From: a bacterium
GTDB taxonomy: Archaea; Aenigmatarchaeota; Aenigmatarchaeia; CG10238-14; SCSR01
NCBI GenBank assembly: GCA_027310405.1
Contig: DAIDAX010000002.1
Location: forward strand, 1 to 50,216
Direction of reading: 5' to 3'
DNA length: 50,216 nt
Shown here: one piece after another, positions 12,611-18,430 of the stretch
Layout: each line of letters begins with the position of its first letter
Position numbering within the stretch: the first letter of the stretch is position 1
The notes under the pieces: model-generated
What the model was told of the DNA's origin: nothing
Databases searched by the model: none
Seen by the model: only the letters and a program-made list of their open reading frames with translations
Translations under genes and position numbers: made by a program

Positions 12611-12943
12611 TTATTTATATTGTTTCAAAAATTCGTTTATTTCCTGTCCGTCAGTTTGTAAGACAACTTTTTGCGGATTCATTATACGGATTTTTCCATA
12701 GCCAAAATCAACGACGAGAAAGAATGGAAATTTTTCAAGTTCCTTTTGCATGTATCCGTAATAGTAAAACTTTTTTTTACCGGAGGATTTTATCTGAAGC
12801 ATTATACAATTTCCACGTTTCATGCAAATGAGATCAGCTTCTCCTATACTTGCACCAGCACGAACAACAATCCATCCGTTTTTTTCAAACATAATTCGAA
12901 TTTTTCTTTCAACTCTGTAGCCCTTTCTCTTCGAGTGAACCAT
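12611..12943 (-). CDS. hjc: Holliday junction resolvase Hjc-like (PD-(D/E)xK nuclease)
   Basis: SKRKGYRVERKIRIMFEKNGWIVVRAGAS.GEADLICMK..CIMLQIKS matches the Hjc layout (E..., D, E/Q-x-K). 110 aa. Confidence 0.65.
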   Translation of the reverse strand: MVHSKRKGYRVERKIRIMFEKNGWIVVRAGASIGEADLICMKRGNCIMLQIKSSGKKKFYYYGYMQKELEKFPFFLVVDFGYGKIRIMNPQKVVLQTDGQEINEFLKQYK

Positions 12944-12978: not shown

Positions 12979-13656
12979 ATGAGAATACTCGCGATTGCTT
13001 GCATACACAATGACATAGAAAGTTTGTTGAATCTTCTCGACAAAATTTCTGGAGAAAAATTTGATGTTGTTGTGTGTCCTGGAGATTTCACTGACTTATC
13101 TTTGCCGAAAGGTTTCACTCGTGTCGACGTAGGGAAACTTATTCTTGAGGAACTTCGTAATGCTGGCAAACCCATTGTTACTGTTCCTGGAAGTTGGGAT
13201 AAAGAGTTGATAGAATTTTTAGATAAACAAAATGTTAGCGTTCATGGAAAATCGATTGTTGTTAATGATGTTGCGTTCTACGGTTATGGTGGTGCACGAA
13301 CGCCTTTCGGAACTCCATTCGAGCCGAGCGATTTGGAAATTGAAAATGGATTACGTGCGGCATACAAAAATATTTCACATAAAGCAGTGAAAGTTCAGGT
13401 GACTCATGCTCCGCCAGCGAATACGAAGCTTGATGTTATTTACAGTGGTGCGCATGTCGGATCTGAAGCAGTGAGAAAAATCATTCAGGAATTTGAACCG
13501 ACTGTTGCAATTTCTGCACACATTCACGAATCGAAAGGAGTAGATGCTCTTGGAAAAACAACTCTTGTAAATCCTGGAAGATTTCCAGAAGGAACTTGCG
13601 CTCTTATCGACATAGATAATGGGAAAGCTACAGCAAAAATCGTGAGTCTGACCTAG
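12979..13656 (+). CDS. calcineurin-like metallophosphoesterase
   Basis: VVCPGDFTD (GD motif), THAPP and SAHIHES (GHxH-like). Motif I reads ACIHN and motif III reads GSWD, so both are partly non-canonical. Confidence 0.65.
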   Translation: MRILAIACIHNDIESLLNLLDKISGEKFDVVVCPGDFTDLSLPKGFTRVDVGKLILEELRNAGKPIVTVPGSWDKELIEFLDKQNVSVHGKSIVVNDVAFYGYGGARTPFGTPFEPSDLEIENGLRAAYKNISHKAVKVQVTHAPPANTKLDVIYSGAHVGSEAVRKIIQEFEPTVAISAHIHESKGVDALGKTTLVNPGRFPEGTCALIDIDNGKATAKIVSLT

Positions 13657-14408: not shown

Positions 14409-14666
14409 ATGAAACGCGGGCGTCCAAACGTCAGAAATTTAGTTCAAAACAATCTTCTGCTTGTTTTAACAACTGCACAGACACCAATGACCGTTTCTTC
14501 GCTGACAAGGTTCATTTCAAAACAGATCAACAAGCAATTGAGCTGGAACACAGTTCAAAAATATTTACAAGAACTCATTCAAGCTGACAAAGTACAAGCA
14601 ATCTCACTTCCACACTCGAAACTTGAAGACAGGAATGGCTTAACCGTTTATACATTGAGGAAGTAA
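14409..14666 (+). CDS. small winged-helix DNA-binding protein, hypothetical
   Basis: LLLVLTTAQTPMTVSSLTRFISKQINKQLSWNTVQKYLQELIQADKV..GLTVYTL has an HTH plus beta-wing layout. A TATA-like tatttaag lies ~20 nt upstream. Confidence 0.5.
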   Translation: MKRGRPNVRNLVQNNLLLVLTTAQTPMTVSSLTRFISKQINKQLSWNTVQKYLQELIQADKVQAISLPHSKLEDRNGLTVYTLRK

Positions 14667-14680
14667 TAGATTACGATTTC

Positions 14681-15709
14681 ATGAACGCACAGGAAGTCAT
14701 TAATAAATTTATTTCAAAAGGATTTCAGCTGAACTCAGACAGTCTGAAATTTTTCACAGAGAATCCGGAAAAAATTGATGACTTCATTACCGAATTAGAA
14801 AATCTTCCACAAAAGCCAACAACGATTACAAAAGAGAACGTAACCAAATTTTTGGAGACTACAGAATCCGAAATCAAAATAATTGAAGAATTTCCAAGAC
14901 AGAACAAAGTTCTCACGACAAACGAAGTTGCACAAATTTATCAGAACCAATTTGATAGAATTAAAAAAATTCTCTCCAATAGGATTGATTTACCAAACTC
15001 GATATCAATAAACAAAATCTCCGACAAGCTGAAAGAATTTTCGATAATAGCAAGAGTTTCACAGATTGATGGAAGCAAAATTATTCTAGAAGACCTAACA
15101 AACCAGATAACTGTAACTTTTCCAAACTCAGAATCCGATAAGCAATTTTTAATTGAAGGAGAAGTCGCGGGATTTATTTGCTCAAATACAGAAAGAGGTC
15201 TACAAATTAAAAAAATAATCTGGCCAGATTTACAATTCAAAAAAGAAGTCACAAAAGGCACAGGGAAAATTATGTTTTCAAACACAACCGACGAAAAACT
15301 ACAACAATCATCAATAAAAATATTTCTTGGAAACGAAGGTCTCTTTTTAGAAAGAGACTCAGAAATTAAAAAAATATCCGATCCATGTATACTTGAAATG
15401 AACGGAGTACGAATTTTTGTTTCGCATGGAAAAATTTTAGAAAAATATAAGGCTAAGCTTGGAGATACTGCAGCAAAAATAATTCTAAATCTAGCTCGCA
15501 AACGAATAATTTTTCCACCGAAATCAATTGCAGAAAATTTTGTACTAGAGGAAATTCCAGATATTTTTGTTGTTGATTCTTTCGGAGAGGCCGAGGCAAT
15601 CACATACAAAGGAACAACTTTTCTTTCGTTAGGTGACCCTAACAAGAAAAAAACTGCGTGGATAGTGGATCTACAAACTAGAGAAAACGTTAAAATAGAT
15701 TTGAATTAA
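14681..15709 (+). CDS. DNA polymerase small/B-subunit-like protein (DP1 homolog, shortened, degenerate phosphoesterase motifs)
   Basis: Aligned by eye to archaeal PolD DP1. Matching segments: N-terminal VINKFISKGFQLNSDSLKFF, FDRIKKIL, an OB-like segment FSIIARVSQIDGSKIILEDLTNQITVTF, GEVAGFIC..IKKIIWPDL, DPCILEMNGVRIFVSHG, LARKRIIFPP, IPDIFVVDSFGE..YKGTTFLSLG. Expected motifs DxH, GDxxDG, GNHD and GHxH read FSNTTD, absent, GNEG and DSFG. Confidence 0.65.
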   Translation: MNAQEVINKFISKGFQLNSDSLKFFTENPEKIDDFITELENLPQKPTTITKENVTKFLETTESEIKIIEEFPRQNKVLTTNEVAQIYQNQFDRIKKILSNRIDLPNSISINKISDKLKEFSIIARVSQIDGSKIILEDLTNQITVTFPNSESDKQFLIEGEVAGFICSNTERGLQIKKIIWPDLQFKKEVTKGTGKIMFSNTTDEKLQQSSIKIFLGNEGLFLERDSEIKKISDPCILEMNGVRIFVSHGKILEKYKAKLGDTAAKIILNLARKRIIFPPKSIAENFVLEEIPDIFVVDSFGEAEAITYKGTTFLSLGDPNKKKTAWIVDLQTRENVKIDLN

Positions 15710-15718
15710 TTAGTAAGC

Positions 15719-18430
15719 ATGGAAATCGTTTTTCAACTTCTAGACTGTGATTATGTTCTGCTTGATGGATTGCCTCTAGTGAGAATTTTTGGAAAAACCG
15801 AGGAAGGAAAATCCACATGCATCTTCGTGAAAAACTATTTTCCATATTTTTATATCCAAGTCTCAGAAGAAAGGAAACAAGAACTCAAAACTTTTCTTGA
15901 CAAAAAATTCAAAAACCAAATTCTAAAAATAGAAGAAGTAGAAAAATTTATCCCAGCAGGGTATCAAGAAAGCAAAACCAAATTACAGAAAATAATTTCC
16001 AAAGACCCATCACAAGTCCCTATGATAAGAGACGAGTTATCGAACCAAAAGTTTGTGGAAAAGATTTTTGAGGCTGATATACTTTTCAAATATAGATTCA
16101 TGGCAGACTGGAATTTGTTTGGCATGCGTTGGTACAAAGTGAACGGAACCAAGATGAAAACACAGACAGTAAAGGCGGATTACCCAATTGAACTCGAGTC
16201 AATCGAAGAGGTACAGGATAAACAAAGCAGTTTTAAATTCCTAAGTGTTGACATAGAAACGATTTCGGAAGAAGGGTTGCCTGATGCGACAAAGGATCAG
16301 ATTGCAATAATTAGTTTAGCATTCGAACCAGAGTTCAATGGGCATTCAGCAATTGTTCTTGTTGCTAAGCCAACTGCCAGACACAATGGGGACATTCAGG
16401 TTTTCAAAAACGAAAAAGAAATGTTACAGGAATTTGGGAAAATAATTTCGAACTACGATCCAGACATGATAATAGGCTACAACGTAAATAATTTTGACAT
16501 ACCTTTCATATCGGAAAGATTTTCTCAAAACAAATTATCGAAAACCCTAGGCCGAGACAATCAAAAACCTCTCATGTCGCATAAAATCGCAGGAAGTTTT
16601 AGAAATTCAATAATTGGAAGAACAATTGTCGATGTGTACGATCTGGTAAAAGAAACTCAAATTAAAACACAACTTGCAGAGAAAGGTTTCTCCAAACTTA
16701 AACGATACGGACTAGACGATGTAGCAAAAGAACTTTTGAAGGAAGGTAAAGTCGAAATTATCAAAAGTGACATTCCGAAAATGTGGAATGGAAATTCGGA
16801 TCAGATAAAACTTTTGCTTGATTATGCAAGAAAGGATGCAGAACTTGCACTGAAGCTTCTCATCAGAATTTCGATGCTTGACAAATTCGTAGAAATTTCA
16901 AAAGTTTCTGGATTGCTACTTCAGGATTCGTTAGACGGCGGGGAAGCCACACGAGTTGAAAACATATTGTTGAGAAAATTTGATAAAGAAGATTTTGTTT
17001 TACCGCTAAAGCCGAGCTCCAACGAAATTTTAAAACGAAGCGAAGACAGAATATCACGTGGATTCAAGGGGGCGTTGGTGCTTGAACCAATCGCGGGGTT
17101 GCATACAACTCCGATAATTTATCTCGACTTCAAGTCAATGTATCCGTCAATCTTCATCGCATACAATCTTTGTCCATCAACTGTAATTATTAAACCAACA
17201 AACGTTACCGACGTAATAGAAACTCCGAACAAAGTCAAGTTTGTCGGCAAATCTGTGCGAGAAGGCGTAATGCCGAAAGTGGTAAGAGAACTCATAGAAG
17301 AGCGTGATAAAGTTCGCGCAGAGGCAAAGAAAACAAAGGACGAAAGCAAGAAAAAAATCCTCGAAGCAAAACAAATTGCGCTAAAGTATATGACCAACTC
17401 TTTCTATGGCTATACCGGATACGAGAGAGCCCGATTGTACATGCTCGATATAGCAACGTCGATTACTGCATGTGGACGGTTCCTAATTGAAAAAACAAAA
17501 TCTCTTGTCGAAGAAGACAAAACGCTGAAAGTCGTTTACGGTGACACAGATTCGATTATGGTAAAGACGAGCTTATCCAATATTGACGAAGCTTTTGCAA
17601 CCGGTCTTCAACTTGAGAAAAAGGTGAACAAAGCCCTGGAAGGAATCATTCAAATAAAGATAGAAAGCGTCTTCGGATCGTTACTTATTCTTTCGAAGAA
17701 AAGATACGCTGGTCTAAGTTACGAAAAATCGGAAGATGGCTGGAAAGAAAAACTGACTATGAAAGGAATAGAAACTGTCAGACGCGACTGGTGTGACTTG
17801 ACGAGCGAGACACTAAGAATAATTCTCGAAATAATTTTGCGAGAGAAAAATCCGAAGAAAGCTCTGAACTACATGAGAGATGTTATACGAAAGTTAGACA
17901 GGAACGAGATTCCGGTAGAAAAATTGGTGATAACAAAATCAATCACGAAATCGATACGCGCGTACAAAGGAATACAGCCACATGTAGAACTTTTGAAAAA
18001 ACTCAAGAAACGAGATGAAGCTTCCGCTCCAGGAATCGGAGACAGAATAGGTTTTGTCATCATTCATGGCACTCAGCTTCTGTCTGAACGTTCGGAAGAT
18101 CCAGAATATGTCAAGATACACAAACTGAAAGTTGATTCGAAATACTACATCGAAAACCAAATTCTTCCGCCACTCGAAAGAGTGTTTGAAGCAATAGGAA
18201 TTTCAAAATCAGAAATTCTTCACGCCGGAAAACAACTTCTTTTAACTGACTCGATTAAGAACGGCATAACAAAACCAGAGAATCAAGTACTGCACGAGAT
18301 TGACGGATTCATTTGTGACAAATGCAATAAGACCTACACACTGATGCCGATGATAGGAAAATGTTTTGACTGCGGCGGAGAAATCGAATTCTACAAAGGA
18401 GAGAACAAGGCAAGGTATTTCTCGCCATGA
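15719..18430 (+). CDS. polB: family B DNA polymerase (PolB) with C-terminal C4 zinc ribbon
   Basis: Exo I FLSVDIET, Exo II IIGYNVNNFDIPF, Exo III YARKDAELAL, Pol A YLDFKSMYPSI, Pol B KYMTNSFYGYTG, Pol C VVYGDTDSIMV, KKRYAG. The C-terminal extension is CDKC..(14 aa)..CFDC. No intein. Confidence 0.95.
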   Translation: MEIVFQLLDCDYVLLDGLPLVRIFGKTEEGKSTCIFVKNYFPYFYIQVSEERKQELKTFLDKKFKNQILKIEEVEKFIPAGYQESKTKLQKIISKDPSQVPMIRDELSNQKFVEKIFEADILFKYRFMADWNLFGMRWYKVNGTKMKTQTVKADYPIELESIEEVQDKQSSFKFLSVDIETISEEGLPDATKDQIAIISLAFEPEFNGHSAIVLVAKPTARHNGDIQVFKNEKEMLQEFGKIISNYDPDMIIGYNVNNFDIPFISERFSQNKLSKTLGRDNQKPLMSHKIAGSFRNSIIGRTIVDVYDLVKETQIKTQLAEKGFSKLKRYGLDDVAKELLKEGKVEIIKSDIPKMWNGNSDQIKLLLDYARKDAELALKLLIRISMLDKFVEISKVSGLLLQDSLDGGEATRVENILLRKFDKEDFVLPLKPSSNEILKRSEDRISRGFKGALVLEPIAGLHTTPIIYLDFKSMYPSIFIAYNLCPSTVIIKPTNVTDVIETPNKVKFVGKSVREGVMPKVVRELIEERDKVRAEAKKTKDESKKKILEAKQIALKYMTNSFYGYTGYERARLYMLDIATSITACGRFLIEKTKSLVEEDKTLKVVYGDTDSIMVKTSLSNIDEAFATGLQLEKKVNKALEGIIQIKIESVFGSLLILSKKRYAGLSYEKSEDGWKEKLTMKGIETVRRDWCDLTSETLRIILEIILREKNPKKALNYMRDVIRKLDRNEIPVEKLVITKSITKSIRAYKGIQPHVELLKKLKKRDEASAPGIGDRIGFVIIHGTQLLSERSEDPEYVKIHKLKVDSKYYIENQILPPLERVFEAIGISKSEILHAGKQLLLTDSIKNGITKPENQVLHEIDGFICDKCNKTYTLMPMIGKCFDCGGEIEFYKGENKARYFSP

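Follow-up and report, generated by a model that had tools for sequence, protein, structure and literature searches.

The group B6-aenigma1 of family-B DNA polymerases (PolBs) was described by Kazlauskas et al. (2020), and the available part of that paper (PMC7544198) also reports that DP2 is absent in most Aenigmarchaeota and distinguishes a group of inactive DP1 proteins. According to the accessible sections of a 2025 study in Nat Ecol Evol (PMC12680538), Baldrarchaeia and Aenigmatarchaeota retain DP1 and lack DP2, and AlphaFold3 models together with yeast two-hybrid data support the binding of Aenigmatarchaeota DP1 to a PolB with a DP2-derived tail. The same sections attribute the 'B6-aenigma2' sequences to Baldrarchaeia contamination. 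The Zn-III finger of DP2 docks DP1 in PolD. The accessible portion of Raia et al. 2019 (PMC6355029) places the Zn-III loop, with residues R1131 and R1132 of a KxRRxP motif, in an acidic groove between the OB and phosphodiesterase (PDE) domains of DP1, and cites nanomolar affinity of a 20-residue Zn-III peptide for DP1. Here, we analyze a 50,216-nucleotide (nt) stretch of an Aenigmatarchaeota (DPANN) genome (contig DAIDAX010000002.1 of assembly GCA_027310405.1; hereafter the window), which encodes a PolB with a C-terminal zinc ribbon and, directly upstream, a DP1-like protein. We consider it most likely that this PolB uses a captured DP2 Zn-III finger to tether the nuclease-dead DP1-like protein as its B-subunit, forming a two-subunit, eukaryote-like replicase. 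The arrangement of a PolB with a DP2-type tail and an inactive DP1 is already published for Aenigmatarchaeota, and the window is an ordinary member of it; a literature search for the pairing of tail-bearing PolB and DP1 found no further publication. Our additions are modest, and consist of phylum-wide counts and a co-variation between an Arg-Arg pair in the tail and an Asp of the DP1-like protein.

The PolB gene (15719..18430, + strand) encodes a protein of 903 amino acids (aa), which was identified from its open reading frame (ORF), Pfam matches and catalytic motifs. It is the sole family-B polymerase detected in the genome of the window. The exonuclease domain spans residues 115-335 (E-value 3.5e-35) and the Pfam domain DNA_pol_B residues 403-826 (E 5.5e-119). 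The original prediction for this DNA, made from the letters alone, held all exonuclease and polymerase motifs to be intact, and every one of them was located: ExoI VDIET at 177-181, ExoII YNVNNFDIPF at 254-263, ExoIII YARKDAELA at 369-377, motif A DFKSMYPS at 470-477, motif B KYMTNSFYG at 556-564, and motif C YGDTDS at 607-612. A further 76 residues come after the thumb motif ERVFEAIG, the last residue of which is 827.

The C-terminal domain of the PolB (residues 828-903; 18200..18427, + strand), delimited by hhalign alignment to DP2 tails and an AlphaFold2 model, is composed of a low-confidence linker, a zinc ribbon, and a short tail. The ribbon core has the sequence C866-x2-C869-x12-C882-x2-C885 (18314..18373, + strand). 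Its four cysteines are the only ones after residue 692, and the domain thus contains exactly one Cys4 motif. A C4 zinc ribbon past the thumb, predicted originally within 18301..18430, is therefore present. The spacing given for it, CxxC-x14-CxxC, has to be corrected to x12, and the extension of about 55 aa measures 35 residues from EAIG to GFICDK. The AlphaFold2 model of residues 780-903 has a mean predicted local distance difference test score (pLDDT) of 72.1, which rises to about 90 over residues 859-903, so that the model is confident over the ribbon only. The ribbon is formed by β-strands and is preceded by short helices in blocks of mean pLDDT 52-64. A near-invariant G-[KR]-Q-x2-L stretch around Q839 (residues 839-846; 18233-18256 of the window) is located between the thumb and the ribbon. 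It resembles a PCNA-binding box (Q-x2-[LM]-x-D-[VI]-[FM]) in several relatives and reads Q-L-L-L-T-D-S-I in the window PolB; hhalign pairs it with a DP2 helix instead.

The tail of the PolB is, judging from profile alignments, homologous to the C-terminal Zn-III finger of DP2. An hhalign comparison of 21 PolB tails from 20 families with the last 170 aa of eight DP2 proteins gave a probability of 98.4% and an E-value of 5.4e-15 over 76 columns. When the tail profile was compared with PDB sequences, the top three matches were all DP2, from T. kodakarensis (6knb_B, 1.3e-10) and P. abyssi (6hms_B and 6t8h_B, 1.6e-9), and the best sequence other than DP2 reached 1.6e-4. Cysteines C866, C869, C882, and C885 of the window PolB align onto C1123, C1126, C1139, and C1142 of P. 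abyssi DP2, which form the Zn-III finger. The likeness reaches past the cysteines, as both families share the pattern F-x-C-x2-C-N-x2-[YF]-R-R-x-P-L-x-G-K-C-x2-C-G-G. A tail search of 1.84 billion representative proteins returned 254 matches at E <= 1e-3. The 45 best of these 254 (E <= 1e-10) look, by length and match position, like PolBs and their C-terminal fragments. According to Pfam, 24 matches picked by hand from below the top PolB block comprise 17 proteins with DP2 domains, five PolBs, one protein with many zinc ribbons, and one without a family. In the six DP2 matches that were inspected, a short distance separates the matching segment from the catalytic domain before it, and 45-52 residues separate it from the C-terminus. 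We also considered the DP2 of family f12, the family of the phylum that retains PolD, as the donor of the tail and rejected it: the tail profile gives its DP2 tails 42-44 bits and the best DP2 proteins elsewhere 44-49 bits, so that there is no donor signal.

The ribbon is a family trait and is not private to the window PolB. When PolB residues 790-903 were used as a query, the motif CxxC-x12-Cx(1-2)C was kept in 117 of the 117 PolB clusters found; the second cysteine pair is CxxC in 102 of them and CxC in 15. The four cysteines are invariant in the 21 sequences from 20 families. Because of this conservation across clusters and families, the ribbon motif is evidently not a product of chance. 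All phylum counts given here refer to one set of 301 genomes sampled evenly from Aenigmatarchaeota, which was used alike for the tail, DP2, and the DP1-like protein. The tail query matches 281 of the 301 genomes, about 270 of them with E <= 1.3e-13, and all 150 of the tail-query matches listed pass the fourth cysteine. Extra tail-query matches were considered as second zinc-ribbon PolBs and rejected, since a renewed search of five genomes with the tail alone yielded an 81-aa frame and one weak hit. The former is a stand-alone ORF with a copy of the zinc ribbon (G020 contig C1:1-1829, locus L055, frame 165-407, - strand), which matches the profile of the PolB C-terminal domain with E 3e-17. It is located about 3.7 kb past the 3' end of the PolB gene of that genome and is perhaps a gene fragment.

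The DP1-like, or B-subunit-like, protein (342 aa; 14681..15709, + strand) consists of an N-terminal helical domain, an OB fold, and an eroded PDE domain, as described by NCBIfam, AlphaFold2, and Foldseek. The NCBIfam DP1 model NF003118 matches residues 2-191 only, with an E-value of 2.3e-20 but a score below the cutoff of the model, and a Pfam search of the protein gave no match. The AlphaFold2 model, built from 31 sequences, has a pLDDT of 89.9 and a predicted TM-score (pTM) of 0.79. According to this model, the protein is an OB fold followed by a calcineurin-like PDE fold. Foldseek found 58 PDB matches to it at E <= 1e-3, the first of which is P. abyssi DP1 (E 2.9e-16), followed by B-subunits of Pol epsilon, delta, zeta, and alpha; human p50 matches with E 1.5e-12. 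The profile of the protein matches DP1 from the PDB with E 1.8e-42. A word-based search found six close relatives, and profile searches of genomes found more. The nearest relative is 64% identical over the full length, and the residues that are invariant in the family are kept.

The metal-binding site of the phosphodiesterase domain is eroded. We take its five motifs to be DxH, GDxxD, GNHD, H, and GHxH. An alignment with three canonical DP1 proteins shows the window protein to be without motifs I, II, III, and V and to keep only the histidine of motif IV; the residues at the five sites are NTT, GN, a gap with EGL, SHG, and DSFG. The protein is thus predicted to be catalytically dead as a nuclease. 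The relatives at loci L002, L003, and L005 retain DxH, GD, and GHxH, and are without GNHD.

The DP1-like and PolB genes are closely linked. The stop codon of the former is separated from the PolB gene by a gap of 9 nt, and the PolB stop codon overlaps the start of a gene for a PAP2 phosphatase. Among the 79 genomes listed for both genes, the window's own excluded, the DP1-like gene lies directly upstream of the PolB gene on the same contig and strand in 75. In the remaining four, the PolB frame is shortened to 186-481 aa, which is consistent with truncation at a contig end. A script confirmed both genes in 60 of 60 fetched regions, three of which repeat earlier loci; these regions were picked since both places were listed, and are not an unbiased sample. 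Twenty regions from 20 families give a more varied picture. The DP1-like gene is upstream-adjacent in 14 of them, and in f28 it is adjacent in reverse order, with the PolB first. It is convergent and located 1.5-3.2 kb past the PolB end in f14, f15, and f20, and lies about 6 kb and about 18 kb from the PolB in f30 and f33, respectively. The original prediction would have failed if the ribbon were common in PolBs that lack a DP1-like neighbor. The ribbon does occur without an adjacent DP1-like gene, but it was not seen in any genome clearly without one.

DP2 and the PolB tail divide the phylum between them. DP2 (PF03833) was detected in 13 of the 301 genomes, namely in 12 of the 12 genomes of family f12 and in G091, where it is a 622-aa frame on contig C64; G091 is the only one of the 289 genomes outside f12 with DP2. 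The tail query gave weak matches in four of the 12 genomes of f12 and none in eight. Both PolBs of this family that were read (774-783 aa) end without a zinc ribbon. The DP2 of f12 (for example at loci L036-L049) is about 1100 aa long, and the three DP1 frames listed, of 496-512 aa, have the canonical length. The DP1-like profile matches 283 of the 301 genomes. A broader profile was applied to five of the genomes missed: in G039 and G116 the gene turned up immediately before PolB, and the other three contain short matches in small frames only, one of them at a contig end. The phylum therefore falls into two groups, genomes with PolD that lack the tail and genomes with the tail that lack DP2, and both retain DP1. 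It is untrue for the phylum as a whole that Aenigmatarchaeota lack DP2, because family f12 keeps the canonical PolD in 12 of 12 genomes.

We assign the window PolB to the B6-aenigma1 kind on the basis of the shared tail and of relatives labeled Aenigmarchaeota or Aenigmatarchaeota by their sources. As far as the available text of PMC7544198 and PMC12680538 describes B6-aenigma1 and PolB-DP2CTD, in which CTD denotes the C-terminal domain, the window agrees in phylum, in the one Cys4 motif that follows an intact PolB and resembles the zinc motif of DP2, in that no DP2 was found, and in the retention of an inactivated DP1. It is unlike B6-aenigma1 in detail only: T874-L875 replace Arg-Arg, Gly160 is present in the DP1-like protein, and this protein is without motifs I and V, which are kept in some relatives (L002, L003, and L005). 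The Baldrarchaeia PolB3-DP2CTD of PMC12680538 is alike in that a PolB is fused to a DP2 C-terminal domain, DP2 is reported lacking, and DP1 is kept. By the description in the accessible text of that study, the Baldrarchaeia domain is full-length and eukaryote-like, whereas that of Aenigmatarchaeota is shorter and degenerate.

The C-terminal domain of DP2, composed of the clamp-1 helical bundle and Zn-III (P. abyssi 6HMS, 6T8H, and 8PPT; T. kodakarensis 6KNB), shares the CxxC-x12-CxxC spacing and the loop with the window PolB. In contrast to the finger of DP2, which belongs to a two-barrel polymerase, the window finger is carried by a PolB and lacks the helices that come next in DP2, and the KxRRxP arginines, present as Arg-Arg in 84 of 117 relatives, are absent. 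The window pair resembles eukaryotic Pol alpha, delta, epsilon, and zeta, in which a catalytic PolB core bears a metal module at its C-terminus and is joined by a B-subunit that combines an OB fold with an inactive phosphodiesterase. Structural matches of the DP1-like model include p50 and the Pol epsilon and Pol alpha B-subunits, with E-values of 1e-12 to 5e-8. Unlike the eukaryotic C-terminal domain with its CysA and CysB modules, the window PolB has one zinc motif, no helical bundle, and no Fe-S cluster, and its B-subunit-like protein, at 342 aa, is much smaller than the eukaryotic B-subunits. The window module corresponds to the Zn-III finger of DP2, and as a single finger does not make up a CysA/CysB pair.

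These comparisons suggest how the window pair could have arisen and how it may work. In a lineage without the PolD catalytic subunit, the single PolB would have captured the Zn-III finger of DP2. In PolD, the finger inserts into the groove that the OB and phosphodiesterase domains of DP1 form between them, and the PolB ribbon would do likewise with the DP1-like protein. The DP1 gene would have stayed directly upstream while its nuclease site decayed, since proofreading is supplied by the exonuclease of the PolB itself. The DP1-like protein may have kept its N-terminal domain for a scaffold role and as a link to the helicase, by extension from the binding of Thermococcus DP1N to GINS reported in the available part of PMC9023282. 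In the lineage of the window, the usual Arg-Arg/Asp contact appears to have been exchanged on both sides for an uncharged one, with T874-L875 facing Gly160. Physical binding of the window PolB to the DP1-like protein would follow by analogy with what is in print on the clade. The idea of the original prediction that the ribbon is a docking site for the neighboring protein is supported by the homology of the tail to Zn-III, by the DP1 fold with its eroded motifs, by the mutual exclusion of DP2 and tail, by gene linkage, and by the co-variation described below; the ribbon is not a counterpart of the CysA/CysB pair, and the idea is not new.

Several observations speak against a docked replicase of this kind. 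A Foldseek search of the PDB with the tail model gave nothing at E <= 1e-3. Ranks 2-4 are P. abyssi DP2 chains with E-values of 0.065-0.16, which superpose over 30-31 columns at 0.6-0.8 Å with 42-43% identity; the best of them, 9f2a_B, has a root-mean-square deviation of 0.6 Å over 31 columns, 42% identity, and E 0.065. The helices that follow Zn-III in DP2, 42-55 residues long and also touching DP1, are missing in the window PolB, which has 18 residues past C885. The tail of Aenigmatarchaeota PolBs is described as degenerate, shorter, and differently folded in the accessible sections of PMC12680538. The window PolB lacks both arginines that contact DP1 in PolD. The window DP1-like protein, at 342 aa and without a Pfam match, is among the more eroded of its kind, as the proteins of 387-391 aa at L002 and L005 match Metallophos_2. 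DP2 was not found in the genome of the window with Pfam PF03833 and PF24846, but this genome (537 kb in 82 contigs) is 88.6% complete, and absence is not proven.

The 12-residue loop between the cysteine pairs has the consensus N-K-T-[FY]-R-R-x-P-L-I-G-K in the 117 PolBs. Arg-Arg is present in 84 of them, and 98 have Arg at the second position. The loop of the window PolB reads K871-T-Y-T874-L875-M-P877. A PDB profile alignment places T874-L875 (18338..18343, + strand) at the position of the DP1-contacting R1131/R1132 in the KxRRxP motif of P. abyssi DP2. It is the only Thr-Leu among the 117 sequences, and the nearest relative has Lys-Met. Alignments of the DP1-like protein reveal Gly160 (15158..15160, + strand) at a position where canonical DP1 and most relatives have Asp; in T. 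kodakarensis DP1 this is the Asp of M-P-D-S-V.

Position 160 is the one column of 14 that separates gene pairs with Arg-Arg from those without. Fifty-seven further loci served as a held-out set and brought the total to 77 unique gene pairs. Among the held-out loci, Arg-Arg is accompanied by Asp or Glu at position 160 in 41 of 41 cases; an acidic residue is present in one of eight pairs that lost the second Arg, and in four of eight in which only the first Arg is changed. The corresponding numbers for all 77 pairs are 55 of 56 with Arg-Arg and one of 12 without the second Arg. A quick PolB tree, calculated with the tail excluded, contains nine independent contrasts in Arg-Arg, in which position 160 changes six times in the same direction, never in the opposite one, and stays unchanged three times.

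The co-variation of the loop Arg-Arg with position 160 is suggestive only, because the independent events are few, the tree is quick, and the column was picked from 14. Its force is reduced by the choice of position 160 from among 14 acid-rich columns on 20 gene pairs, and by the five of nine pairs in the whole set of 77 that keep the acidic residue after a change of the first Arg only. There are also two exceptions, an Arg-Arg pair with Gly and a pair without the second Arg that keeps Asp. The statistics are weak, with a sign test p of about 0.03 on all rows and of 0.125 on the held-out loci alone (4:0:2). The co-variation was not found in the available parts of the cited literature on the pairing, although no search was aimed at it.

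We tentatively speculate, as a possibility that we do not favor, that Arg-Arg and Asp160 form a charge pair in direct contact, a legacy of PolD, in which R1131 and R1132 lie in the acidic groove between the OB and PDE domains. Both sides of the pair would have been dropped together several times, at least six as judged from the independent contrasts, and the window subunits would be held by a re-wired, uncharged contact of T874-L875-M876 with Gly160. If true, the charge-pair explanation would provide residue-level evidence, from a natural experiment, on the evolution of the interface between PolB and B-subunit. The matched Arg-Arg and Asp changes point to a cheap mutational test of this interface.

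The ribbon might instead mainly grip DNA, as a thumb extension on the minor groove of the new duplex resembling Zn-III in the PolD clamp, while the DP1-like protein attaches at another site or stays unbound. This is unlikely, even though the consensus loop of the family is basic, with Lys or Arg at several positions. The loop of the window PolB is stripped of most charge (NKTYTLMPMIGK), and it is a residue of the DP1-like protein, rather than any part of PolB, that varies together with the loop dipeptide. Furthermore, DP1 is retained throughout, whichever of the mutually exclusive DP2 and tail is present, and a two-hybrid interaction is reported in the available part of PMC12680538. DNA gripping and DP1 docking are, moreover, not mutually exclusive. 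Another explanation takes the unique Thr-Leu, with Lys-Met in the nearest relative, as a sign that the contact is being lost in the lineage of the window, so that the ribbon and the DP1-like gene are leftovers of a complex that works in relatives. The shortened PDE domain of the DP1-like protein, with four nuclease motifs lost and no Pfam family, fits such decay. Yet both frames are open and 9 nt apart, the four cysteines, G880, and K881 are all kept, and the DP1-like protein has retained full-length identity of 64% to its nearest relative, the invariant residues of its family, and a confidently modeled fold (pLDDT 89.9). The changes on the two sides are also matched, as a maintained interface predicts, and we regard decay as quite improbable. 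That the tail is an unrelated zinc ribbon of the RpoP, TFIIE, or adenylate-kinase-lid type, which recruits another partner such as primase or PCNA, seems very improbable. Foldseek and the PDB sequence search also return weak matches to Nob1, adenylate-kinase lids, HypA, and RpoP, but DP2 leads all other solved proteins by five to six orders of magnitude (1e-10 against 1.6e-4), and its likeness extends beyond the cysteines into the loop.

A PolB that docks DP1 through a DP2 finger would be a living model of a PolB that replaces the catalytic core of PolD while the small subunit is kept. It bears on the origin of eukaryotic replicative polymerases, a point made in 2020 and tested in 2025, to which the window adds one member. 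The phylum counts sharpen the picture, with the tail in about 270 of 301 genomes and DP2 in 13 of 301, which are those of the tail-less family f12 plus G091.

The run of genes on the + strand consists of those for an 85-aa protein, the 342-aa DP1-like protein, the 903-aa PolB, and the PAP2 phosphatase. The 85-aa winged-helix-like protein (14409..14666, + strand), recognized from its ORF, its conservation, and its nearest named clusters, is the first gene product of a cassette of small winged-helix, DP1-like, and PolB genes, and its gene ends 14 nt before the DP1-like gene. It matches no family in Pfam or NCBIfam, and its nearest named clusters in a protein atlas are winged-helix regulators. 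A single query found the gene in 38 of 61 genomes of the order, including 17 of 18 of family f1 and 17 of 18 of f3, and in 0 of 18 of f2. Wherever matches are listed for both genes, the DP1-like gene follows it immediately. On contig C21 of G013, the 85-aa gene is duplicated along with a second DP1-like copy. The protein could be a third replicase subunit or a regulator. Upstream of the cassette are a gene for an Hjc-like resolvase with a weak NCBIfam match (12611-12943, - strand) and, next to it, one for a YfcE-type metallophosphoesterase (12979-13656). The order of these two genes is kept at L002 and L004, and L005 has the metallophosphoesterase only.

Several polymerases outside the window have unusual architectures. 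PolB frames of 1300-1840 aa are present in several relatives (G022, G064, G188, G234, and G116; proteins P0132, P0148, and P0182). P0182 bears a LAGLIDADG domain, and inteins therefore interrupt the polymerase in some lineages; the window PolB is without an intein. In the 2207-aa predicted protein P0266, DP2 (N-terminal, central, and catalytic parts) and bacterial Pol III alpha (PHP, NTPase, finger, and HhH) are joined, both of them in full; it may stem from a fused gene call or a misassembly, and would otherwise be a very odd polymerase. Four metagenomic PolBs of about 780 aa (P0175, P0176, P0188, and P0233) have another thumb motif, YYWTNKIFP-like in two of them, and the same DP2-type ribbon with Arg-Arg. 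A metagenome scan around these four found only relatives of 26-32% identity, all without the ribbon. The ribbon-bearing PolBs of about 780 aa may represent a second, possibly mobile-element, PolB clade with a DP2-type module. One of their ribbon-less relatives is encoded in the virus-like contig L060, in which an HNH-like endonuclease motif and a CMP/dCMP-deaminase-like zinc motif were recognized by eye.

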